NCBI GenBank assembly: GCA_965223845.1
Contig: CBDCXR010000004.1
Span: 7,680,001-7,744,000 of the forward strand
Source of the DNA: Planctomycetota bacterium
Lineage (GTDB): Bacteria > Planctomycetota > UBA8108 > SXIK01
Direction: 5' to 3'
Length of the DNA: 64,000 bases
Part shown: positions 49,242 through 60,220 of the stretch, one piece after another
Layout: the number at the start of each line of letters is the position of its first letter
Numbering within the stretch: the first letter of the stretch is position 1
Translations under genes and position numbers: made by a program
Notes under the pieces: model-generated
The model's input: the letters and a program-made list of their open reading frames with translations, nothing else
Database searches by the model: none
What the model was told of the DNA's origin: nothing

Positions 49242-50900
49242 TCAACGATTCAGATTGTACTTGTTGATCTTGTTGTAGAGGCTCGTCTTCGGCACGGCGA
49301 GCTTCTTCGCGACGAGGCTCTTATTCCCTCGGCACTCGACGAGCGACGCGCGGATGATCTGCTCCTCGACCAGCTCGACGGCCTGTTTGAGAGTCAAGTC
49401 GACGAGATTCGTCTTCAACTCGGCGAGCGTCGTCTGCTCCGAGCCGCGGAGAAGAATGGTCTCGGAGAGCGCATCGACGCCGATCTCTCCGTCCGAGAGC
49501 GCATAGAGGCGCTTCACCTCGTTCTGGAGCTCGCGGATGTTTCCCGGCCAGTCGTATTCCTCGAGCTTTTCGAGGGCGCGCGAATCGATCTCTTTGTGGT
49601 CGCCGTGCTCTTCGTCGAGGACCTGGAGAAAGTGGCGGACGAGGTCCGGGACATCCTCGCGTCGTTCGCGGAGCGGCGGCAGCTTCAGGTTGATCACGTT
49701 CAGGCGGTAGTAGAGGTCCTCGCGGAAGTTCCCCTGCCGGACCTCTTCTTGCAGATCCTTGTTCGTCGCCGAGATGATGCGAACGTCGACGTCGATGAGC
49801 TCCTTGCCGCCGACTCGCCGGACGACGTTTTCCTGAAGGACTCGGAGGAGCTTTTTCTGCATCGTCGGGCTCATGTCGCCGACCTCGTCGAGAAAGAGCG
49901 TCCCTCCCGTCGCGAGCTCGAAGAGGCCCTTACTGTCTTTCGTGGCGCCGGTGAACGCGCCCTTCATGTAGCCGAAGAGCTCGCTCTCGAGCAGCGTTTC
50001 GGTGAGCGCGCCGCAGTTCTCCGAGATGAAGGGCTGGTCGCGGCGGGAGCTGTTTCGGTGAACGGCGTTCGCGATGAGCTCCTTCCCCGTTCCGCTTTCG
50101 CCGTTGATGAGAACGGGCGCGTTCGACGTCGCGATGCGATCGAGAATTTGAAAGATCTCGATCATGCGCGGGCTGTTCCCGACGATGATCGAATAGTCGC
50201 CGGCGAGGTCGCTCCGCTGCGCCTGCTTCCCGCGCCGCACCGGCGTCGGGACCTCGAGTGCGGTCGCGGTGGCGGTCGGGGGCTGTTCGCGGAGACGCGC
50301 GACGTCTCCCCAGAGGGAGCGGTTCTCGGCTTGCAGTCGGTCCTGGGCGAGCATCCCGGCGATCACGTCGCACTGAATGCGGACCACCCGGAGCCGATCC
50401 GGGTCGGTGTGGAGCTCGCGGAACCGGTTCTCGACCTGAATGACCGCGTCGACTCCGCGCGGTCCGACGATCGGGAGTGCGAGCAAATGCGGCTCGCGCT
50501 CCTTCGACGCCAAGTAGCCGCTTCGCACGACGGCGGCGGTGATCGCCGGGTCGATCTTTTTCTCCGGCTGCTGAACGCTTTCGCCGTCGACATCGATCGC
50601 GACGAGACAGTTCGCGGCTACCCGGCCGGTCGTCACCGCCTCCTCGCCGTTCGTCGCGAGCAAAAACGCCCGCTCCCCGCCGAGGAGCTGAAGGAGATCG
50701 AGAAGCAGCGATGCGACCGCCGGCGGCGCGTCGCCCTCAGCGGCGCGTTCGGACTCGGCATCGTCGGGTCGACGGAGGAGCGCGGAGGCGCGCATCGCGT
50801 GGTCGAGCATCGACGCGGGTCTTTCGAGGCCGGACCAGATATCGTTCCACTGCTGGTCCGGGGTGGTGACCGGCGTCGCTTTCGAGCTCTGTTCGTTCAC
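49242..50900 (-). CDS. sigma54-dependent Fis-family activator with GAF-like N-terminus
   Basis: GESGTGKE, ESELFGYMKGAFTGA, FLDEVGD, WPGNIREL and HTH; GTG 50900 with upstream GAGGAG. Confidence 0.92.
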   Translation of the reverse strand: MNEQSSKATPVTTPDQQWNDIWSGLERPASMLDHAMRASALLRRPDDAESERAAEGDAPPAVASLLLDLLQLLGGERAFLLATNGEEAVTTGRVAANCLVAIDVDGESVQQPEKKIDPAITAAVVRSGYLASKEREPHLLALPIVGPRGVDAVIQVENRFRELHTDPDRLRVVRIQCDVIAGMLAQDRLQAENRSLWGDVARLREQPPTATATALEVPTPVRRGKQAQRSDLAGDYSIIVGNSPRMIEIFQILDRIATSNAPVLINGESGTGKELIANAVHRNSSRRDQPFISENCGALTETLLESELFGYMKGAFTGATKDSKGLFELATGGTLFLDEVGDMSPTMQKKLLRVLQENVVRRVGGKELIDVDVRIISATNKDLQEEVRQGNFREDLYYRLNVINLKLPPLRERREDVPDLVRHFLQVLDEEHGDHKEIDSRALEKLEEYDWPGNIRELQNEVKRLYALSDGEIGVDALSETILLRGSEQTTLAELKTNLVDLTLKQAVELVEEQIIRASLVECRGNKSLVAKKLAVPKTSLYNKINKYNLNR

Positions 50901-51436
50901 GCGATTCTCTTCTCCTCGAAGTGCTCCCGCGCCCGCATGCGATGACGAGCGTCCTCCGATGGAATCGGTCGCCGACGCACTCTCTCTTCGCCGCGAGTCG
51001 AAAACGGAACCTCGGGCGCGAAGCGAGCGGTCGGGGTCCGGGCTCTCCGCCGGCGAACTCGACGCGCCGGAGCAGGGCGACGGGAGAACTGCCCGTTCGG
51101 AGGAGAAGAGTACCATCTCGGCCCCGAATCGGCCGGTCGGGCGGCTCGAGGGGGCGCTCGCCGCGTCTCCGGGCTTTTCCTTGCTCCGATGCCTCTGCGG
51201 AGGTAGAGCTCGAGGTTCCGGGACGGCGAAGAATCCTCGCTGCGCGAGGCGTGGAGGTGACGTCCGGTCGCCGCGCCGCGGCACCGCCGAACTCGAGTAA
51301 AGAGCCGAAACGATCCTTCCGATATCGAAGGAGCACCGCGCGCCTCGGATACGAACGTCTCACCTCACGAACCGTTCACTGCGGCGTCCGGGGTCGTCGC
51401 GCGCAACTTCCGAACCGAAGCTCGAGGACTCGAACC

Positions 51437-51925: not shown

Positions 51926-53344
51926 GTGACGATCGGCGCAGAGGAGTTGGCTGCGCTCGCTCGAGACGCGCTCGACCTCGCCGTTGGCGCGCGAGTCGAG
52001 AACGTTCACGTCTCTCCTGGTGACGTCGTCACGCTCACGCTCTATCAGCGCGGGCGCGGCAAGGGCTTCCTGCTCTTCTGCCTCGAGCCCGAGCTCCGCC
52101 GGTTTCATTTCGTCGCGCACCGACCCCCGGCGCTCGCGGAGGCGTCAGCAGCCGCGAAAACGCTGCGGCGCCATCTCGCTAGGCAACACATCGAGCGACT
52201 CGACTGGAACGAGCGCGGGCTCTGCCTCGAGTTCCCCGAAGGTCTCGGTCTGCGCGTCGATCTCCTTGCGAACTCGCCGCGTCTTCGCCTAGAGCGCGGT
52301 GGCGAAGCTCTCCTCGAGGTCGCCGCGGGCAAGCTCGGTCCGGGGGGCGGTGACGTCGCGGCCGCCGAGCGGACTCGCGCCGGTCTCGTACCGGCGTCGC
52401 ACGCGCGAGTCGCGGCGCGCTATGCGGACGTCGAGAAGGACGTTCACCTCGAGGCGGCGCGGCAGTCGCGTCTGCGCTCCCTCACCCGGGCGCGGCGCCG
52501 TCAGAGGCGGCTCGTCGACAACCTGCTCCGCGATCGCCAGCGAGTCGATACCGCGTCCGACGCTCTCCGCGAGGGCGAGTTGCTGAAGTCCGCGCTCGGA
52601 TCGCTGAAGCGCGGAATGACCGAGGTTGAGATTCCCGATTACTACGCCGAGGGGGCGCCGCTTCGGCGGATTCTCCTCGATCCGCGCCTTTCACCGATCG
52701 AGAACGTCGAGCGGCGGTTTCGCCGTTACAAGAAGCGCGAGCGCGCGCTGCCGATCATCGCGAAACGTCTCGCGCGTGCCGAAGACGGAGCGCGCGAGAT
52801 CGCTTCGCTCCGGGAGCGCGTGGCCGCGGCGGAGTCGATCGAGGAGCTCTCCGCTCTCGACGCGGCGATCTCGCGCTTCGCCCGGGAGAAAGGAGTCCGC
52901 CAGAAAGGCGCGGCTCGGACGGCGAGAGCCGGGCCTCGTCGCTTCGTCTCGGCCGATGGCATCGAGATCCTCGTCGGACGAAACGCCCGTGGGAACGACG
53001 AGCTGACGTTTCGCATCGCGCGAGGAAACGACCTCTTCCTTCACGCGAGCGGCGTCGTAGGCTCGCACGTTATCGTGCGCGCCCCCGTCGAGTCGGTCCC
53101 GCCGGAGACTCTCATCGACGCGGCGCATCTCGCCGTCTACTACAGCGGACCGCGGCGCGACCGCGTCGCAGCGGGCGGCGAGGTCGATTACACGTCCGTG
53201 AAGCACCTCCGGCGGGTGAAGGGCGGACCGCCCGGGCGGGTCCTCTTTACGGATCACCGCAGTCTTCGCGTCCGCTGGGAGCCCGAACGATTCGCGCGAC
53301 TGCGCGGCGAGGACGCCGATCCGCCGCGAGGCGAGTCCCGTTGA
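51926..53344 (+). CDS. NFACT/RqcH (FbpA-like) family protein
   Basis: Coiled-coil middle, LDPRLSPIEN, ILVGRNARGNDELT, FLHASGVVGSHVIV, AAHLAVYYS, VDYT. Confidence 0.88.
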   Translation: MTIGAEELAALARDALDLAVGARVENVHVSPGDVVTLTLYQRGRGKGFLLFCLEPELRRFHFVAHRPPALAEASAAAKTLRRHLARQHIERLDWNERGLCLEFPEGLGLRVDLLANSPRLRLERGGEALLEVAAGKLGPGGGDVAAAERTRAGLVPASHARVAARYADVEKDVHLEAARQSRLRSLTRARRRQRRLVDNLLRDRQRVDTASDALREGELLKSALGSLKRGMTEVEIPDYYAEGAPLRRILLDPRLSPIENVERRFRRYKKRERALPIIAKRLARAEDGAREIASLRERVAAAESIEELSALDAAISRFAREKGVRQKGAARTARAGPRRFVSADGIEILVGRNARGNDELTFRIARGNDLFLHASGVVGSHVIVRAPVESVPPETLIDAAHLAVYYSGPRRDRVAAGGEVDYTSVKHLRRVKGGPPGRVLFTDHRSLRVRWEPERFARLRGEDADPPRGESR

Positions 53345-53453
53345 TGGAGCGTGCGCTCGAAGCACCAGAGGAAGCGGGGGGCGCGAGGCGGCGGAACGCG
53401 TAAACACGGCCGGATTCTCGCGCTCGGAGTACGCGCCGCGCCCCGCTGTAACA

Positions 53454-53482
53454 TTGACCTGCCAACAGAGTTATGCTACGAT
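53454..53482 (+). promoter_or_regulatory. Putative sigma70 promoter TTGACC-N17-TACGAT with extended -10
   Basis: 17-nt spacer and TGn before the -10 box. Confidence 0.6.
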
Positions 53483-53600
53483 TAGAAGTCTCTTGAGCCC
53501 GCCGTCCGGCGCGGCTCCTCTCCGAGAGAAATCAGAAGAGTTCAGCCGAAGAGTACCGACGAGTATCGCCGTCGATACCACTGCCGACGAGGTTCCCGCT

Positions 53601-54308
53601 ATGTCTGCAGCGTGCCGTCCGTTCGTCCGGGTAGCTGCTTGTTCCGTGTTCAGCGTTCTCCTCTTTTCCTGCTCCGGCTCGGAGAAGCTCTCGGTCACCG
53701 AGAAGGCCCGCCGGATCACCGAGAAGCGCGCGGAGGCGAAAAACGCCTACGACGCGTACGTGAACTCCGACTACACCGATCTCGAATCGCTTCAGGCTTG
53801 CGCGGATGCCTACGTCGAGTCGACCAAGATCGCGCCCGGAAGCTGCAATCTCTGCTTCTACCACGCCGGTCGCGCGCTGCGGGCGGTTGGGAATCACTAC
53901 CGCACCCTGATTGCACAGCTCGATGAGGAGCGGCGGCGCGGCGGCGACGCGAGCGCCATAGAGAAAACGGTCGAGAGTTACCGGGAGCTCGTGCGCGAAA
54001 ACTACCGCGAATCGAATCGGATGTACCAGTCGTACTTCCGTCGCGAAGGCACCTACGCGCATCCCGACGCCCATCTCGACTCGGTCGACAACTTCGCCCA
54101 GCTCGGTGAGTACGATCGAGCGCTTTATCACCTCGGTGTGTTCGAGGAGATCATCGACGAGCGGAGCCAGCTCGGCGAGACGAATCGCACCGAGATCGCG
54201 CGGCTGCGTCGCACACTCGAGACGCGCCGGCGCGTCGCAGAGGATCGGCGCATCGAAGAGGAACTCTCGGAAACGGACCGAGACCACCGTCCGCGCTTCA
54301 GCAACTGA
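53601..54308 (+). CDS. Hypothetical helical (TPR-like) lipoprotein
   Basis: Lipobox-like LLFSC, internal CNLC and helical repeats. Confidence 0.7.
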   Translation: MSAACRPFVRVAACSVFSVLLFSCSGSEKLSVTEKARRITEKRAEAKNAYDAYVNSDYTDLESLQACADAYVESTKIAPGSCNLCFYHAGRALRAVGNHYRTLIAQLDEERRRGGDASAIEKTVESYRELVRENYRESNRMYQSYFRREGTYAHPDAHLDSVDNFAQLGEYDRALYHLGVFEEIIDERSQLGETNRTEIARLRRTLETRRRVAEDRRIEEELSETDRDHRPRFSN

Positions 54309-54723
54309 TCGCGTTTCGCAATCAGGGGCGGACAAAGCTGCCGAACGCATCGAGCCGTTTCCCGACGCGATGCGCGTTCCCATCGGGCGGCGGGGACGGA
54401 CCCGCTCCGATCGCGGCCCTCGCACGGGCCGGAAATGTGTGACGCCGCCGGAGCCGCAGCTTCCGCGCGAGGCCGGTACGGCCTTCCGCTCCTAAGCCGG
54501 TCTGGCGCGGTCCGTTTGGCGGTCCCTGAGGGCGATGCTATTCTTCGATACCCCGAAGGAAGCCGGCGGGTTCCGCCCGCGGATCGGCTCCTTTGGGACC
54601 GAGGTGCATCCTCTACTTCGGACGCATCGCCACTCGACCTTTCGAGGTCATCCCGCCTTCGCGGGCGACGATCCCCGTCGCCCGCTTCGCCCCAGCCCGC
54701 TACGGATACTCCGGACTCTGCCC

Positions 54724-55578
54724 ATGCCGGAAGCGATCGACATCAAGAGTGTCATCCAGGGTAGCACCTGCGATATGACCGTGGACTCCCTCACGAAGAA
54801 GGGAGTGAAGCAGGTCAAGGTCCTCAATCAGGCCACGATCACTCGATTGATCTCCGAAACGATCGACCAGGTGCTCGCGGAGCGTTCGGAGGACATCAGT
54901 GCGCGCGAGCGGCAGCGAGTCGCGGCGCAGGCGCAAGACCGGCTGCAAAACAGCATCGGCGATCTCGCTCGTCTCCGCGCGCAGGTGGCGCAACTGACGG
55001 AGTCGAACAAGGCCTACTCGGAGGAACACGACCGTCTCCGGACGCGCCTCCAGTCGCTCGTCGACGCCCAGGCCGAGCGCGACCAGCTCTCGCAGCAGCT
55101 CCAGTCGTCGCGCGAAGAGATTCTTCGGCTCCAGCGGTCTTCGGCGAGCGCGTCGGAGGCAGCGGTCGAGCTCGAATCCTCACGGCAGCGCGCGGCGCAG
55201 CTCGAAGGTCAGCTTACCGCGCTCACGCAGCAGCTCTCGCAGCTTCAATCGAGCGCCGGCTCGAGCCCGGAGCTCCAGCAGATTCTGGAATTGTTGAGCA
55301 CCAAGTCGGACGGCAGCGCGCAGGCCGGCGGCGACGTCCTATCGGCGCTCACGAAGCTCACCGAAAAGGTCGAGCGAATCACGGCCAGTGGTGGAAGCGG
55401 TGGAGCCGGCGGATTCGCGGATATCGCACCGCCGGATGAAACGGCTCTCGAGTTCCTCGTGAAGGGCGAGGGACCGGTCGAGAGCAATATCGACACCGTC
55501 GAAGTGAAGAAGAAGTCTGCGGGTGACGTTAAAGGCGCCCTCGCCAAACTGAAAAAGCTTCAACAAGGAGGAGAGTAA
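54724..55578 (+). CDS. Coiled-coil protein coupled to the actin-like gene
   Basis: Gln/Leu-rich heptads; C-terminal amphipathic helix DVKGALAKLKKLQ; its stop overlaps the next start (TAATG). Confidence 0.82.
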   Translation: MPEAIDIKSVIQGSTCDMTVDSLTKKGVKQVKVLNQATITRLISETIDQVLAERSEDISARERQRVAAQAQDRLQNSIGDLARLRAQVAQLTESNKAYSEEHDRLRTRLQSLVDAQAERDQLSQQLQSSREEILRLQRSSASASEAAVELESSRQRAAQLEGQLTALTQQLSQLQSSAGSSPELQQILELLSTKSDGSAQAGGDVLSALTKLTEKVERITASGGSGGAGGFADIAPPDETALEFLVKGEGPVESNIDTVEVKKKSAGDVKGALAKLKKLQQGGE

Positions 55579-56639
55579 TGTCACAAGGCACCGATGGCGG
55601 TTCCCAGGTAGCGGAGCCAGTCGCCGGGGGCGCGGCGGTGGGCGGCGGTCAGTTCGCTCCGGGTCGTGGCCTGGATGTCGGTACGGCCAACTTGGTCAGC
55701 AGCGTGCAGGATCATTCCGGCAACGTCACGATCAAGATCCAGCGGAACGCCTTTATCGACGTCAACGCGGACGACTACACGAAGAACATGCTCTCGAAGC
55801 TGAACGTGCAGTACGTCGTCATCGACGGTCGCATGATCGTCGTTGGTGACCCCGCGTTCGAGCTCGCGAACATCCTCAACAAGGAAACGCGGCGTCCGAT
55901 GAAGGACGGCGTGATCAGCCCCGCCGAAGCGGACGCGATGCCGGTCGAGAAGATCATCCTCGCGAATCTGCTCGGTGAGCCGAACTTTCCGAAGGAGAAG
56001 GTGTACTACTCGGTTCCGGCCGACCCGATCGACGCCGACTTCAACGTCGTCTATCACAAGGGCGTGTTCGGTGGGCTCCTGAAGAAGCTCGGATACGCAC
56101 CGAAGCCGCTCCAGGAAGGGCACGCGGTGGTTTTCTCCGAGCTCGCCGAAGACGATTTCACCGGAATCGGAATCTCCTGCGGCGGCGGAATGTTCAACAT
56201 CTGCGTCGCGTACAAGTCGATCCCCGCGCTCACCTTCTCGACGAGCAAGGGCGGCGACTGGATCGATCGCAATGTCGCGACCGTGCTCGGGATCAAGGCC
56301 TCCCGCGCGACGGCGATCAAGGAGCGCGGAGTCAATCTCCTCAGCCCGCGGAATCGCGAAGAGGAAGCGGTCGAGATCTACTACCGAAACCTGATCTCTT
56401 ACACGCTCGAGTCGATCAAGAAGCGCTTCGAGTCGTCCGAGGGCATGCCCTCGTTCCCCGAGCCGGTCGAGATCGTCTGCGCGGGCGGGACCTCGATGAT
56501 CGGTGGCTTCGTCGAGATCTTCCAGGACGAGTTCGAGTCGATCAACTTCCCGATCGAAGTGAAGGGAATCCGTCGCGCCGACGATCCCCTCTTCAGCGTC
56601 GCGAAGGGTTGCCTCGTCGCCGCCCTCTCGGACGTCTGA
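55578..56639 (+). CDS. Actin-fold ATPase resembling haloarchaeal volactin
   Basis: Phosphate-1 GLDVGTAN, RRPMKDGVIS, YSVPADPID, EGHAVVFSEL, GISCGGGMFN, GGDWID, adenosine AGGTS, PLFSVAKG; AGGAGG SD. Confidence 0.85.
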   Translation: MSQGTDGGSQVAEPVAGGAAVGGGQFAPGRGLDVGTANLVSSVQDHSGNVTIKIQRNAFIDVNADDYTKNMLSKLNVQYVVIDGRMIVVGDPAFELANILNKETRRPMKDGVISPAEADAMPVEKIILANLLGEPNFPKEKVYYSVPADPIDADFNVVYHKGVFGGLLKKLGYAPKPLQEGHAVVFSELAEDDFTGIGISCGGGMFNICVAYKSIPALTFSTSKGGDWIDRNVATVLGIKASRATAIKERGVNLLSPRNREEEAVEIYYRNLISYTLESIKKRFESSEGMPSFPEPVEIVCAGGTSMIGGFVEIFQDEFESINFPIEVKGIRRADDPLFSVAKGCLVAALSDV

Positions 56640-56686
56640 TCAGGCGCCGCCTCGGCTCCGACGAGCCGAGGGGAAGATGAACTCTG

Positions 56687-56731
56687 CCGCGAGCTCCCGA
56701 TGCCGAAAGCTTCCGGGGCTCGCGGTTTTTT
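56687..56731 (+). terminator. Intrinsic terminator of the actin operon
   Basis: Stem CCGCGAGCTCC...GGGGCTCGCGG followed by TTTTTT. Confidence 0.7.
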
Positions 56732-56826
56732 CTTGGTTCGTGGCCTCGAGTTCAGCCGCCGGCGAAGCCGCGGACTTCACCGGATTCGGTGCGCGCAACG
56801 ACGACGCATCGATGCTCTGTTCCCGG

Positions 56827-57861
56827 TCACGACGTCGCGGTCGCATCGGGTGGGGACTGCGGCCGCCCGGAATCGACGCGCTCCGAAGTGCCTTCCGCAG
56901 CCTCCCTCTCCTCGTCTTCCGCCATCTTCCGAAGTGCGCGTCGAAAGCGAATCCGGTGTCGCACGATCGCTGCGACGGCGAGGATCGCGCTCACGGTCCA
57001 AAAGTTGAGGAGTCCGATGATCGACCACGGAAGCGAGCTCCGGGCGGCCAGCCAGTCGGCGAACGCGTCGTCGAGCTCACTCTCCGCGACTCCCGTCACG
57101 CGCGCGAGTCGGGCGTGCGAGTCGCCGCCGCGGACGCTCTCGACGAGTCGCGGAACGATTCCTTCACCGTGCCGCTCGACGAGGAACTCGATCCAGGCGT
57201 AGCTCTGAAGATACGCGAGCGAGCTCTGTCGGTGTGCGCGGGGAAACTCGTCGCGGAGCTTCTCGAGCGAGTAGATTCCGCCGACGCGCGCCGCGATTCC
57301 GAGATGGGATTCGTCGCTCGGCGACGGACGATGATCCGAGACCCACATCGCGAGGCCTTCGTCTAGCCAGCGAGGGATCTCTTCCGCGCCCTGATGGAGG
57401 ATGAGATGCGCGATCTCGTGACGGAGCGTCTCCGCGAACGGGCTGTACCTGAGAATCAGCCCACCGCGGAGAACGAGGGTCCTCAGTGACGGAACTGCGA
57501 CGCCCACGGCGCCTTCGGGAGGCGATCCACCGCGGGTGAGCTGACCCACGACGCGGCGAAACTCGGGGTCGTCCGGTGTGAGGACGACCCGGATCGGAGT
57601 CTCGAGCTCTCGACCCAGCCGGGTCCCGATCTCACCGGCCACGCGGGGCAGCGACTGGCTCAGTCGCTCGACTTCGCTCTCCGACCAGCCCGTCGCGTCG
57701 ATCGGGCCCACCGCCGACGCGGTCCGGGTGTACCCCTCGAGTGGGACTCCGCCGAGCTGAGCGACGAGCGCGACGATGGCGAGAGCAGAAGCGATCACCG
57801 CACGTGCCTCCGAGCTGATTCGAGTCGATCCAACGCCAACAGACCCCGCCGATGCTGTCAT
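56827..57861 (-). CDS. Peptidase MA-family metalloprotein with C-terminal TM
   Basis: LRHEIAH, PRWLDEGLA, AYLQS; N-terminal hydrophobic segment and C-terminal TM. Confidence 0.8.
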   Translation of the reverse strand: MTASAGSVGVGSTRISSEARAVIASALAIVALVAQLGGVPLEGYTRTASAVGPIDATGWSESEVERLSQSLPRVAGEIGTRLGRELETPIRVVLTPDDPEFRRVVGQLTRGGSPPEGAVGVAVPSLRTLVLRGGLILRYSPFAETLRHEIAHLILHQGAEEIPRWLDEGLAMWVSDHRPSPSDESHLGIAARVGGIYSLEKLRDEFPRAHRQSSLAYLQSYAWIEFLVERHGEGIVPRLVESVRGGDSHARLARVTGVAESELDDAFADWLAARSSLPWSIIGLLNFWTVSAILAVAAIVRHRIRFRRALRKMAEDEEREAAEGTSERVDSGRPQSPPDATATS

Positions 57862-57929
57862 TCTGACGCACGCAACTTGTTGTTCAACGTCCGGGTTCTA
57901 TAATCGGGCCTTCGACTGTCAGAATGGCT
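57855..57929. promoter_or_regulatory. Divergent promoter region with TATAAT and two TGTCA-N3-TGRC sites
   Basis: CTGTCATTCTGACG 57855-57868, TATAAT 57899-57904, CTGTCAGAATGGC 57916-57928. Confidence 0.55.
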
Positions 57930-58745
57930 GGCAAGCGAACTCGACGCGATGGGGGGCGACCATTGAGTGAGACCGTGGATACCCGCGGGAGCGGATCGAG
58001 CGACTGGGACTTCGACGTCGCCGCGATGGCCGGGAGCCTCGTCCACGAAATCAAGAATCCGCTGAGCACGATCGGGATCAACGCGCAGCTCCTCCTCGAG
58101 GAGTGGAAGGATGCCGAATCGACCCGCGAGCTTCGCGCGCGGAAGCGTCTCGAGATCATCTCGTCCGAAGTGCAGCGTCTCGAGGGCATCGTCGAGTCGT
58201 TCCTCCGCTTCACCGAGCGCCACGAGCTTCGGCGAGAGCCGACGAATCTGAACGATCTCGTCACGGATCTCGAAGAGGTGAGCGCATCGAAGGCGGCTCA
58301 GAGCGGCGTGACGACGCTTCTCGGGCTCGATCCCGATTTTGCGCTCGCCGACGTCGACCCCAGTCTCGTGCGTCAGGTCGTGCTCAACTTGATCTTGAAC
58401 GCGATTCACGCCATGGCGGAAAGCGGGGGAGAGTTGATCCTCCGCACGCGGGCGGTCACGCGCGACGGTACGCCGTGGTGCGTGGTCGATGTCGTCGACA
58501 CCGGCTGCGGCATGAGCGAGCGCGTCCGGGAGCGCGTCTTCGACCTCTATTACTCGACGCGACGCGACGGGAACGGACTCGGCCTCGCAACGTCGAAGCG
58601 CATCGTCGATGAGCACGGAGGGTGGATCGAAGTCTCGAGCGAAGAAGGGAAAGGGAGCCAGTTCAGCGTCTATCTTCCGGTCGCGCCGGCGGGCGCGGGA
58701 ACGCAGGATCCCGGCGCGGAGCCGAGCGAGACGGAGGCGAGCTGA
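57924..58745 (+). CDS. Cytoplasmic histidine kinase lacking a sensor domain
   Basis: HEIKNPL, NLILNAIHAM, DTGCGM, GNGLGL; only about 40 aa precede the H-box; start uncertain. Confidence 0.9.
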   Translation: MAGKRTRRDGGRPLSETVDTRGSGSSDWDFDVAAMAGSLVHEIKNPLSTIGINAQLLLEEWKDAESTRELRARKRLEIISSEVQRLEGIVESFLRFTERHELRREPTNLNDLVTDLEEVSASKAAQSGVTTLLGLDPDFALADVDPSLVRQVVLNLILNAIHAMAESGGELILRTRAVTRDGTPWCVVDVVDTGCGMSERVRERVFDLYYSTRRDGNGLGLATSKRIVDEHGGWIEVSSEEGKGSQFSVYLPVAPAGAGTQDPGAEPSETEAS

Positions 58746-60220
58746 TGGCGAAAGCCGACGAGAAAAAGACCCAACTCGCGATCGTGGACGAGCCGGCAGA
58801 AGCCGAGACGTCGTTTCCGCGCGAGCCGGAGCCCGCGTCCGACGAAAGCGACCGCAGCTCGGACGATTCCTTGGGGCGCGTTCTCATCGTCGACGATGAT
58901 CCGCACCACGCCGAGAGCACCGCCGACGTCCTCAGCACGGTGGGATACCGGTGCGACACGGCCGGGAGCGCAGAAGCTGCGCTCGAGCGGCTCCGCGAAC
59001 GCGAGTACGACCTCGTCCTCACCGATCTCGTCCTCGGCGATTTAGACGGTATGGAGGTCCTTCGCGGTGCGCTCCAGATCAATCCTCTCATCGCGGTCAT
59101 CGTCTTCACCGGCCACGCGACGGTCGAGACCGCGGTCGAAGCGTTGAAGCGCGGCGCGGTCGATTACCTCATGAAGCCGCTCAACATCGACGGTCTTCGC
59201 ATCCGCGTGAAGAAGGCGCTCGAGCGGCAGGAGCTCGTCCGCATCAACCGCGACCTCGAGAAGCGCCTCGACAGCAAGTTCGGTTTTGAAGGCATCATCG
59301 GCAACAGCGAGCCGATGCGCGAGACGATCGAGCTCATGAAGCAGATCGTCGACACGGATGTCTCGGTGCTGATCACCGGCGAGAACGGTACCGGGAAGGA
59401 GCTGATCGCGCGCGCGATTCACGAGAACAGCGGCCGGCGTCACCGCGCGCTCGTTCCGCTCAACTGCGCGGCTCTCTCCTCGCAGCTGGTCGAAAGCGAA
59501 CTCTTCGGGCACGAGAAGGGAGCGTTCACCGGCGCGCAGAACCAAAAGAAGGGGCGGTTCGAGTTCGCGAACCACGGGACGCTCTTTCTCGACGAGGTGG
59601 GGGACATCCCGATCGACACCCAGGTCAAGCTCCTCCGCGTGCTCGAGTCGGGCGAGGTGATGCGCGTCGGATCCAACGAGGTGATCCGCGTCGATGTTCG
59701 GTTGATTTCGGCGACGAACCGCGACCTCGAGCAACTCATCGCCGAGGGGAAGTTTCGCGAGGACCTCTACTACCGACTCAAGGTGGTGACGATCCACCTT
59801 CCGCCGCTCCGCGATCGCGGTCCCGACATCACGCTTCTCATCGACCACTTCGTCCGCGAGTTCGCGCGAATCTACAAGAAGCCGATCACCGGGATTACGC
59901 GCGAGGCGATCACCGTGCTTCAGACCTACCGCTGGCCGGGGAACGTACGCGAACTGAAGCACGCGGTTGAGAACATGGTGGTCGTCTCCCGCGGTCCGGT
60001 GCTCGGGGTCGACAGCCTGCCGCAGAGCATTCACCGCGCCGAGAAGGTCGCGAGCGTCGGGCTCGGGTCGATCGTGGGAATGACCAGCGAGGAGCTCGAC
60101 CGGGAGCACGTCCGGCTCACGCTCGAGCACGTCGGGGGAAATCGCCAGGCGGCCGCGAAGATGCTCGGCATCGGAGAGCGGACGCTGTACCGTAAGCTGA
60201 ATCGCTACGGGCTGTCGTGA
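58745..60220 (+). CDS. NtrC-family sigma54 response regulator
   Basis: Receiver (LIVDDD, DLVLTD, KP), GENGTGKE, ESELFGHEKGAFTGA, WPGNVREL, Fis HTH; TGATG coupling to the kinase. Confidence 0.95.
   Translation: MAKADEKKTQLAIVDEPAEAETSFPREPEPASDESDRSSDDSLGRVLIVDDDPHHAESTADVLSTVGYRCDTAGSAEAALERLREREYDLVLTDLVLGDLDGMEVLRGALQINPLIAVIVFTGHATVETAVEALKRGAVDYLMKPLNIDGLRIRVKKALERQELVRINRDLEKRLDSKFGFEGIIGNSEPMRETIELMKQIVDTDVSVLITGENGTGKELIARAIHENSGRRHRALVPLNCAALSSQLVESELFGHEKGAFTGAQNQKKGRFEFANHGTLFLDEVGDIPIDTQVKLLRVLESGEVMRVGSNEVIRVDVRLISATNRDLEQLIAEGKFREDLYYRLKVVTIHLPPLRDRGPDITLLIDHFVREFARIYKKPITGITREAITVLQTYRWPGNVRELKHAVENMVVVSRGPVLGVDSLPQSIHRAEKVASVGLGSIVGMTSEELDREHVRLTLEHVGGNRQAAAKMLGIGERTLYRKLNRYGLS

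Follow-up and report, generated by a model that had tools for sequence, protein, structure and literature searches.

An overlapping gene pair encodes an actin-fold protein and a coiled-coil partner

Two overlapping genes for an actin-fold protein and a coiled-coil protein were analysed in a 64,000-nucleotide stretch of planctomycete DNA (assembly GCA_965223845.1, contig CBDCXR010000004.1, positions 7,680,001 to 7,744,000). This whole stretch is referred to as the window, and coordinates are those of the window unless indicated otherwise. Both genes lie on the (+) strand. The first (54724..55578, stop codon included) encodes the partner, a protein of 284 amino acids that consists of an N-terminal domain (N-domain), a helical spacer, a Gly-rich linker and a conserved C-terminal motif (C-motif). 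Its open reading frame (ORF) comprises positions 54535..55578; the start was assigned to the ATG at 54724 on the basis of the N-termini of homologues. The second gene (55578..56639, stop codon included) encodes a protein of 353 amino acids, which was assigned to the Pfam family Volactin (PF25216), and therein to a planctomycete clade designated type i, by means of its family match, its AlphaFold2 (AF2) model and a phylogenetic tree.

The genes share a single base, as the stop codon TAA of the partner gene (55576-55578) and the start codon ATG of the actin gene (55578-55580) form the sequence TAATG. A Shine-Dalgarno-like AAGGAGG (55565..55571, + strand) precedes the actin ATG by six bases and is located within the last codons of the partner gene. 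Downstream of the actin gene, in the gap to the convergent next gene, RNA folding of the segment 56636-56745 yielded two hairpins (56650..56735, + strand) that are likely to be an intrinsic terminator. The first hairpin (56650-56671) has a GC-rich stem of 9 bp; the second (56686-56726) has a 12-bp stem and is followed by the U-run UUUUUUCUU. The minimum free energy of the segment is -56.3 kcal/mol (z -2.83), and 3 of 200 shuffled sequences folded as well. A consensus scan flagged no (+) strand terminator at the locus, probably because its loop limit of 8 made it miss these hairpins. No sigma-70-like promoter was detected by consensus scan, and Rfam gave no match at E up to 0.1 within 53000-58000. 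The compact two-gene unit with a strong ribosome binding site and its own terminator, which had been proposed in a first-pass annotation of the window, was thus recovered. The same holds for the lack of familiar cytoskeletal neighbours: no mre (including mreC and mreD), fts, pil, par or mam genes were found within about 5 kb of the locus.

The actin-fold protein is a member of the volactin family

The protein encoded by the second gene is a genuine volactin. It matched PF25216 over profile positions 3-321 of 321 with an E-value of 1.4e-86 and a score of 291.4 bits (cut-off 35), and a genome-wide search gave the same result. Other actin families stayed below their cut-offs. FtsA reached 22.6 bits in Pfam (cut-off 31.8) and 20.8 bits with TIGR01174 (175.85), MreB reached 18.4 bits with MreB_Mbl (27) and 13 bits with the NCBIfam model (293), and MamK reached 29.9 bits with the NCBIfam model NF040964 (400). 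For ParM, Pfam yielded no family match. Furthermore, the tree described below split the PF25216 sequences from the true MreB and from the second actin of the same genome (support 96). The first-pass annotation had preferred volactin over MreB, FtsA, ParM and MamK, and this assignment is borne out; the short sequence blocks on which it was based are all present in the translation, and an alignment showed their counterparts in the haloarchaeal homologues.

Close homologues bear public names such as "hypothetical protein", "actin-like ATPase involved in cell morphogenesis" and "cell division protein FtsA"; the family scores give no support to the latter. Bacterial members of the family already carry the Pfam label Volactin in precomputed annotation. 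A search of the literature retrieved no description of bacterial volactins or of the partner; the supplement of the Haloferax volactin paper (PMC10869688), which contains BLAST results, may mention bacterial homologues. Volactin and planctomycetes were found together only in a review that lists them separately, and for planctomycete actin homologues with coiled-coil partners nothing relevant was retrieved beyond a magnetosome paper. The system had been put forward as a candidate undescribed one in the first-pass annotation; no paper on it was found, but its actin already had a family name.

The AF2 model of the actin, which was computed from 17 aligned sequences, has a pLDDT of 86 and a pTM of 0.84; residues 1-24 are predicted to be disordered. 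A Foldseek search with this model identified an actin fold, with MreB, Mbl and MamK as best matches, followed by BeeR, FtsA and eukaryotic actins. The top matches in the PDB had TM-scores of 0.55-0.75 (MamK, 5ljv_A, 0.69/0.75; MreB, about 0.6). By sequence, no close relative was found among solved structures, the closest being MamK with an E-value of only 0.016. Aligned to the MreB of the same genome, the protein retains the blocks for phosphate 1, connect and adenosine, whereas its phosphate-2 block reads ISCGGG instead of VDIGGG. The first-pass annotation had correctly pointed out the SCGGG sequence. It is, however, not particular to this protein, as a Ser in place of the phosphate-2 Asp is common to all PF25216 subfamilies that were aligned, including the haloarchaeal one. 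Since the founder of the haloarchaeal type polymerises in vivo, this Ser is not specific evidence against activity.

The upstream gene encodes a dedicated partner of no known family

The partner comprises four parts. The N-domain (residues 1-56; 54724..54891, + strand), which was delimited by means of a hidden Markov model (HMM), consists of two short helices, a basic stretch with a VKVL-type segment and a longer helix. It is followed by a helical, coiled-coil-like spacer (about residues 58-220; 54895..55383, + strand), which is a long helix in the AF2 model and varies in length among homologues, and by a Gly/Ser-rich linker (residues 221-230; 55384..55413, + strand), which was read from the translation and is Gly-rich at the same place in homologues. 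The C-motif (residues 235-284; 55426..55575, + strand) was defined by an HMM and an alignment of 44 tails, in which Asn255 and Leu273 never vary and Glu253 and Leu276 are almost always kept. Residues 261-284 are basic, in agreement with the basic end that the first-pass annotation had ascribed to the partner. No hydrophobic segment was seen by eye in the translation.

For none of these parts did a Pfam or NCBIfam family reach its cut-off; the matches of the spacer to coiled-coil regions of SMC, Rad50, YabA and ZapB all stayed below threshold. An AF2 model of the first 105 residues, computed from 38 sequences, contains two short helices, an extended basic segment, a 20-residue helix and one long helix. 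Its pLDDT is 52-77 in the N-domain and 85-97 over residues 60-104 of the long helix. When the 38 N-terminal segments were compared with Pfam, no family occurred in more than 7 of them and none came near its cut-off. The ESM Atlas gave no usable match to the N-domain, and a Foldseek search with the N-terminal model gave a single match at E 9. A homologue search with residues 1-75 yielded eight proteins, none of which has a Pfam domain or an informative name.

HMMs of both ends of the partner were derived from loci of a phylum sample that contained 301 genomes of Planctomycetota, whose families are designated by codes such as f8 and f57. Upstream ORFs were read in 25 of these loci, and the N-domain HMM was built from 15 ORFs. 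The HMMs were then applied to 80 independent loci, none of which had been used in building. These are the best 80 of 273 loci that encode a relative of the window actin in a species-level genome collection (58-91% identity, by listed best segment), and all synteny counts given here refer to them. According to their titles, 71 loci are from planctomycetes, seven from a "bacterium" or "uncultured bacterium", one from Proteobacteria and one from Bacillota. The C-motif was found in the ORF directly upstream of the actin gene, on the same strand, in 77 of the 80 loci, the N-domain in 75, and both ends in one ORF in 73. Neither HMM matched elsewhere in these loci, and in the window genome the partner's C-motif was the sole match of its HMM among 72,182 ORFs. 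Three loci at contig ends (L057, L073, L101) lack the N-domain only; in L091, likewise at a contig end, about 270 nt of upstream sequence are available, and in L106 the gene is apparently split by a frame change. The C-terminus of the upstream gene, to which the first-pass annotation had drawn attention, is thus conserved beside volactin homologues, and the partner is a dedicated, syntenic partner of the actin. In the 73 loci with both ends, N-domain and C-motif are separated by 69 to 599 residues (median 162), and the entire span measures 204 to 696 residues (median 292). The C-motif ends in the median one residue before the stop codon. Co-folding of actin residues 25-353 with the last 80 residues of the partner gave scores of 0.45, 0.52 and 0.37; one control with an unrelated protein gave 0.83.

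Outside the window, the same genome encodes a second pair of an actin and a coiled-coil protein (L004; G000:C4:2153046-2157005). Its actin has 371 amino acids and scores 64.5 bits with MreB_Mbl and 38.8 bits with Salactin; compared to the window actin, BLASTP found no significant similarity (best E 0.46). A 413-residue coiled-coil protein is encoded directly before this actin on the same strand. Its middle part matches the N-domain HMM with an E-value of 2.4e-5 among the 72,182 ORFs, while BLASTP gave no alignment between it and the window partner. A weaker match to the N-domain HMM (E 5.6e-4) lies in a protein of about 165 residues with a short helical tail (G000:C4:1632009-1632575, + strand), which has no adjoining actin gene.

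In natural fusions the N-domain is linked to the actin and the C-motif is lost

In 10 of the 150 best cluster representatives of the actin, the N-domain is fused to the N-terminus and is followed by a linker or a coiled coil and then by the actin. The C-motif was found in none of the 150 representatives and hence in none of the 10 fusions. Seven of the eight fusions that are part of the tree form one clade (support 96), which argues for an inherited architecture and against a gene-calling slip. One fusion was confirmed in a genome assembly (L151); it contains the N-domain at residues 3-62 and the actin at residues 373-701, and no C-motif. The simplest reading of this loss is that the covalent link makes the C-motif unnecessary. 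If it is dispensable in the linked form, the C-motif would serve to hold the actin in the two-gene form.

Other extended or multiplied actins were observed as well. In family f57 (L140-L150), the type i actin occupies the C-terminal end of a longer open frame (671-944 codons) in all 11 loci analysed; the stretch in front of it is strongly acidic, in one case also coiled coil, and was matched by neither the N-domain nor the C-motif HMM. Two type i actin genes in tandem follow one partner gene in L031, L033, L035, L088, L092, L153 and L154. Some cluster representatives of about 700-750 residues (P0121, P0122, P0124 and others) hold two actin stretches in one protein.

A membrane-bound zinc peptidase is a conserved neighbour of the pair

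Convergent to the actin gene, a gene for a zinc-metallopeptidase-like membrane protein of 344 amino acids (56827..57861, - strand) was identified, which matches Peptidase_MA_2 (PF13485) with 45.6 bits (cut-off 32.4). The protein has a hydrophobic segment at its N-terminus, an HExxH motif at residue 148 and a C-terminal transmembrane (TM) segment, which is followed by a tail that is first Arg-rich and then acidic. This neighbour, which is absent from the first-pass annotation, recurs: a homologue adjoins the actin gene in 45 of the 80 loci, 44 times downstream on the same strand and once on the opposite strand, and 71 loci have at least 1200 nt downstream of the actin. The HExxH motif is kept in all 43 proteins compared (that of the window and 42 of the 45, whose ORFs could be delimited), as are the C-terminal hydrophobic segment and the tail. 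In the window and in its closest relative L037, the peptidase gene is inverted yet still adjacent. The conservation of a membrane zinc peptidase whose cytoplasmic tail is short suggests the cell envelope as the site where the module would act.

Genomic context

The neighbourhood of the pair further comprises genes for a sigma-54 activator, an NFACT protein, a 284-residue protein, a histidine kinase, a sigma-54 response regulator and dnaK, as well as a gene which, judged by its translation, we take to be ndk. The locus is flanked by two sigma-54-type AAA+ activators and the histidine kinase (49242-51284, - strand; 57924-58745 and 58622-60220, + strand). The kinase and response regulator genes each adjoin the module in 6 of 80 loci, all of them from the closest relatives. 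An NFACT gene is located upstream in 28 of the 80 loci; as its distance is constant in related genomes, we interpret this as preserved gene order rather than as a sign of a functional link. The gene for the 284-residue protein (53454-54308, + strand) is situated between NFACT and the partner gene; the protein has no Pfam family, and a homologue occupies the same place in only 4 of 80 loci.

The source genome has a size of 7.93 Mb in four contigs and is 91.7% complete. A search for sequencing data listed four entries, all belonging to one study, none of which is recorded as RNA. Elsewhere it encodes a true MreB (414.6 bits). No match to tubulin or FtsZ was found at this level of completeness, which agrees with the statement of the first-pass annotation that planctomycetes divide without FtsZ. 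With DnaK not counted, the genome encodes at least four actin-fold proteins, namely MreB, the actin of L004, that of L006 and the window volactin. The L006 protein (G000:C4:7147851-7151546, ORF 1177-2244, + strand) is a divergent actin-fold protein of 355 residues that scores 32.7 bits with MreB_Mbl (cut-off 27).

Type i volactins are widespread and diverse in the Planctomycetota

In the phylum sample, PF25216 exceeded its cut-off in 114 of 301 genomes. A search with the window actin found matches in 94 of the 301 genomes at E up to 1e-30, and 86 of these are type i, which was defined among the sampled genomes as a best match at least 51% identical to the window actin. Across the sampled families, the identity of type i proteins to it is 51-79%. 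All 15 genomes of family f8, from which the only named cultured match (Polystyrenella longa) comes, carry PF25216; the f8 proteins are only about 22% identical to the window actin. A profile-free exhaustive search of representatives of 50%-identity clusters yielded 1,171 matches at E up to 0.001, 826 at 1e-10 and 378 at 1e-30.

A tree of 91 sequences was calculated with the quick search of IQ-TREE, and SH-aLRT values served as support. It contained every second representative of single-domain length (320-400 residues) among those ranked P0146-P0270 and all labelled sequences; 39 representatives carry no taxon label. The window actin is part of a type i clade of 33 sequences (98). The other clades are formed by f8 proteins (92, with long branches), by a second planctomycete group named type ii (99) and by haloarchaeal proteins (100). 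The latter two are joined weakly (82), and unlabelled representatives lie between the groups.

Two very large records of "uncultured phage" also carry genes of the volactin family (L158, LR745208.1, 485 kb; L159, LR756511.1, 595 kb), whose products are 41.6% and 35.5% identical to the window actin, respectively. In L158, an upstream ORF of 209 amino acids overlaps the actin ORF; its C-terminus resembles the partner tail by eye, and neither the N-domain nor the C-motif HMM matched it.

Haloarchaeal and other volactin genes have upstream partners of their own

A tblastn search of 72,556 plasmid records with the window actin gave five matches, all of which are on large haloarchaeal replicons (Natrinema, Haloarcula, Halogeometricum); they are 41.5-42.8% identical over 92% of the query. 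None of the bacterial plasmids among the records was matched. These homologues, and not VolA of H. volcanii itself, were used for the haloarchaeal comparison. At three haloarchaeal loci, the gene that directly precedes the actin gene on the same strand encodes a protein of about 300 residues, which contains several hydrophobic segments in its N-terminal part. In Haloferax, the CdpA-like HVO_2016 beside volA has four predicted TM segments (PMC12126565). None of the three upstream proteins matched the N-domain HMM. That of L117 gave a weak C-motif match of 10.4 bits (E 1.9e-4 in a six-sequence database, 0.015 among the six-frame ORFs of the loci); the other two gave none. As the haloarchaeal neighbour is a CdpA-like membrane protein with four TM segments, the type i partner is not shared with the archaea. 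The first-pass annotation had assumed a pair shared between the two domains of life; for the partner this did not hold.

VolA (HVO_2015, Haloferax volcanii) and the window actin thus resemble each other in belonging to PF25216, in sharing the blocks around phosphate 1, phosphate 2 (with Ser), connect and adenosine, and in having a conserved gene directly upstream on the same strand. They differ in the product of this gene, which is a membrane protein of about 300 residues in the case of VolA and a soluble protein with N-domain, coiled coil and C-motif in the window, and their clades are separate branches of PF25216.

Upstream partners were also found in other subfamilies. In f8 (L008, L018, L129-L139), an ORF of 300 or more amino acids on the same strand terminates at or close to the actin start in all 13 loci. 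The ORFs that were read encode single-pass membrane proteins of 486-805 residues with a hydrophobic segment and conserved cytoplasmic motifs, and a conserved C-terminal tail is present in 11 of the 13. In type ii (L120-L127 among these), 7 of 9 loci have an upstream gene for a protein of about 200-300 residues whose N-terminal region is conserved and which contains a coiled coil. The tails of the type i, f8 and haloarchaeal partners and of the ORF upstream of the phage copy look alike by eye (amphipathic helices), and a binding peptide common to the subfamilies was therefore considered. The idea was rejected for lack of support from profiles: the f8-tail HMM found nothing better than E 1.2 among 463 ORFs of haloarchaeal loci or E 0.34 among 6,487 ORFs of type i loci, and the haloarchaeal-tail HMM gave noise only. 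Judged by these comparisons, what appears common to the volactin subfamilies is the layout of the locus and not a detectable partner sequence.

Proposed function of the module

The findings are best accounted for by an actin filament with a dedicated adaptor that is linked to the envelope, and we consider this reading probable. By homology to volactin, the actin would form nucleotide-dependent filaments. The gene overlap and the Shine-Dalgarno-like sequence suggest that translational coupling would supply the partner in a fixed proportion to the actin. The adaptor most likely dimerises via its long helical spacer and most likely holds the actin or the filament by means of the motif at its extreme C-terminus, for which the conservation of this motif, its position and its loss in the fusions speak. 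With its basic N-domain, it may dock to some cellular target. The synteny with the peptidase suggests that the module would act at the envelope, in shape determination, in budding or division, or in wall remodelling.

Several observations weigh against this reading. Binding of the actin by the partner is putative, as is polymerisation. The C-motif was not detected in three of the 80 loci, namely L089, which contains neither end in spite of 3 kb of upstream sequence, L108, which contains the N-domain only, and L091. The N-domain model is moderately confident and resembles nothing known, so that its target is a guess. The peptidase gene of the window lies on the opposite strand and is not co-transcribed with the pair, and no peptidase was detected in 26 of the 71 loci with room downstream. 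Family f8, to which the one named cultured match belongs, is without type i (0 of 15 genomes), and the best 80 related loci are all from metagenome-assembled genomes. Finally, the phosphate-2 Asp of MreB, MamK and ParM is replaced by Ser, which may affect the chemistry.

It is rather unlikely that the partner acts mainly as a regulator of assembly, that is, as a nucleator, capper or bundler whose dimeric coiled coil would present two actin-binding tails, unite two subunits and thereby seed double filaments or cross-link them. The long helical spacer and the single binding motif of each chain would suit this role, translational coupling would fix the stoichiometry, and in the fusions the N-domain, which might act as a dimeriser, is joined to the actin. 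A pure nucleator, however, needs no conserved basic folded domain at its N-terminus. Furthermore, related N-domains occur in two other proteins of the genome, one of them away from any actin, which speaks for a docking module that has a target of its own.

Slightly less probable is DNA segregation in the manner of ParMRC. The basic N-domain would then bind DNA, at a centromere-like site or the nucleoid, and the C-terminal peptide would capture the ends of dynamically unstable filaments, whereby DNA is pushed apart. The combination of a small N-terminal domain, a basic strand-like segment, helices and a conserved C-terminal peptide resembles the architecture of ParR, whereas the order adaptor gene before actin gene is the reverse of the order parM before parR. 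Volactin dynamics are said to resemble those of ParM, and salactin, another haloarchaeal actin, aids DNA partitioning, according to PMC10869688. In contrast, the 415 nt upstream of the partner gene contain no iterated-repeat array, only two-copy matches of 11-12 nt; the partner gave no match to DNA-binding families; and the plasmid search found no bacterial relative. The fusions place an N-domain on every actin subunit, which fits a tether to a membrane or scaffold better than an end-binding centromere complex, and the gene conserved beside the actin codes for an envelope peptidase.

A recent transfer of the haloarchaeal volA system is very unlikely. The module would in that case act as in Haloferax, with cytoplasm-spanning filaments whose tips are attached to the membrane and which drive a switch of cell shape. 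This explanation draws on an identity of 42-43% across domains and on the nucleotide-binding and family-specific blocks, which are all shared. However, the window clade and the haloarchaeal clade are separate, each with high support, and it is the type ii and unlabelled sequences that group, weakly, with the haloarchaeal proteins. Type i is deep and diverse in the phylum and is apparently not nested in Halobacteria. The partners differ as well, with a soluble coiled coil on one side and a CdpA-like multi-pass membrane protein on the other, and no common tail motif was found by profile searches. The tree indicates that the window actin is not a recent haloarchaeal import, and it would fit either transfer between the domains or ancient descent.

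Finally, it is highly improbable that the protein is a non-polymerising ATPase of the actin/Hsp70/sugar-kinase superfamily and the upstream gene a mere operon neighbour without physical link: phosphate 2 lacks its usual Asp and filaments have been documented directly for no bacterial member, but the score extends over the full length of a family whose founder forms filaments, the structural neighbours MreB, MamK and BeeR are filament formers, and synteny in 77 of 80 loci together with recurrent fusion is hard to explain without a functional link.

An actin filament with an envelope-linked adaptor would bear on how planctomycetes grow, shape their cells and divide without FtsZ, which is an open question. 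The module offers a concrete, conserved gene set for this purpose, consisting of a non-MreB actin, an adaptor and a membrane peptidase. Volactin, which has so far been studied in one haloarchaeon, where it forms dynamic filaments in vivo and where its binding factors are described as unknown (PMC10869688), is extended to a large bacterial clade. Since each volactin branch has its own upstream partner, these proteins are obvious candidates for volactin-binding factors. The natural fusions indicate which parts of the partner are dispensable, which is useful for the design of experiments. One may go further and assume that volactin-type actins are in general modules with a lineage-specific upstream adaptor and that type i, together with the zinc peptidase, is a cytomotive machine for FtsZ-independent envelope remodelling in growth or division. 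This generalisation is speculative and, in our estimation, doubtful; if it were true, the module would be a candidate component of the long-sought apparatus by which planctomycetes bud or divide without FtsZ.

Comparison with other actin systems

ParM/ParR, AlfA/AlfB and Alp7A/Alp7R also combine an actin-fold protein with a small dedicated adaptor that has a conserved terminal peptide. The window system differs from ParM/ParR in lacking a Pfam match to ParM and centromere-like repeats, in its chromosomal housekeeping context and in the reversed gene order.

MreB, which operates with RodZ, MreC and MreD, shares the actin fold with the window protein, and a link to envelope enzymes via a membrane protein with a cytoplasmic tail may be a second common feature. 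In contrast, the window genome has a separate true MreB, and mreC and mreD are not found near the window actin.

MamK and Mad28 work with coiled-coil or acidic adaptors (MamJ; Mad20, Mad23, Mad25 and Mad26) to place a cellular structure, as stated in PMC12748827. The window pair likewise consists of an actin-like protein and a coiled-coil partner, and MamK is among its best structural matches; however, the window actin is far below the NCBIfam cut-off for MamK, and no magnetosome genes lie near the locus. Saltatorellin of the Saltatorellota, a MamK-like second actin that forms filaments in E. coli and Magnetospirillum (bioRxiv 10.1101/817700), is comparable as a non-MreB actin from a planctomycete-related lineage, but according to the same source it branches next to MamK. 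The actin of the second pair in the window genome, L004, may be of the saltatorellin type. Compared to these systems, the window locus is a further version of an actin-like filament with a dedicated adaptor, the adaptor being of no known family.

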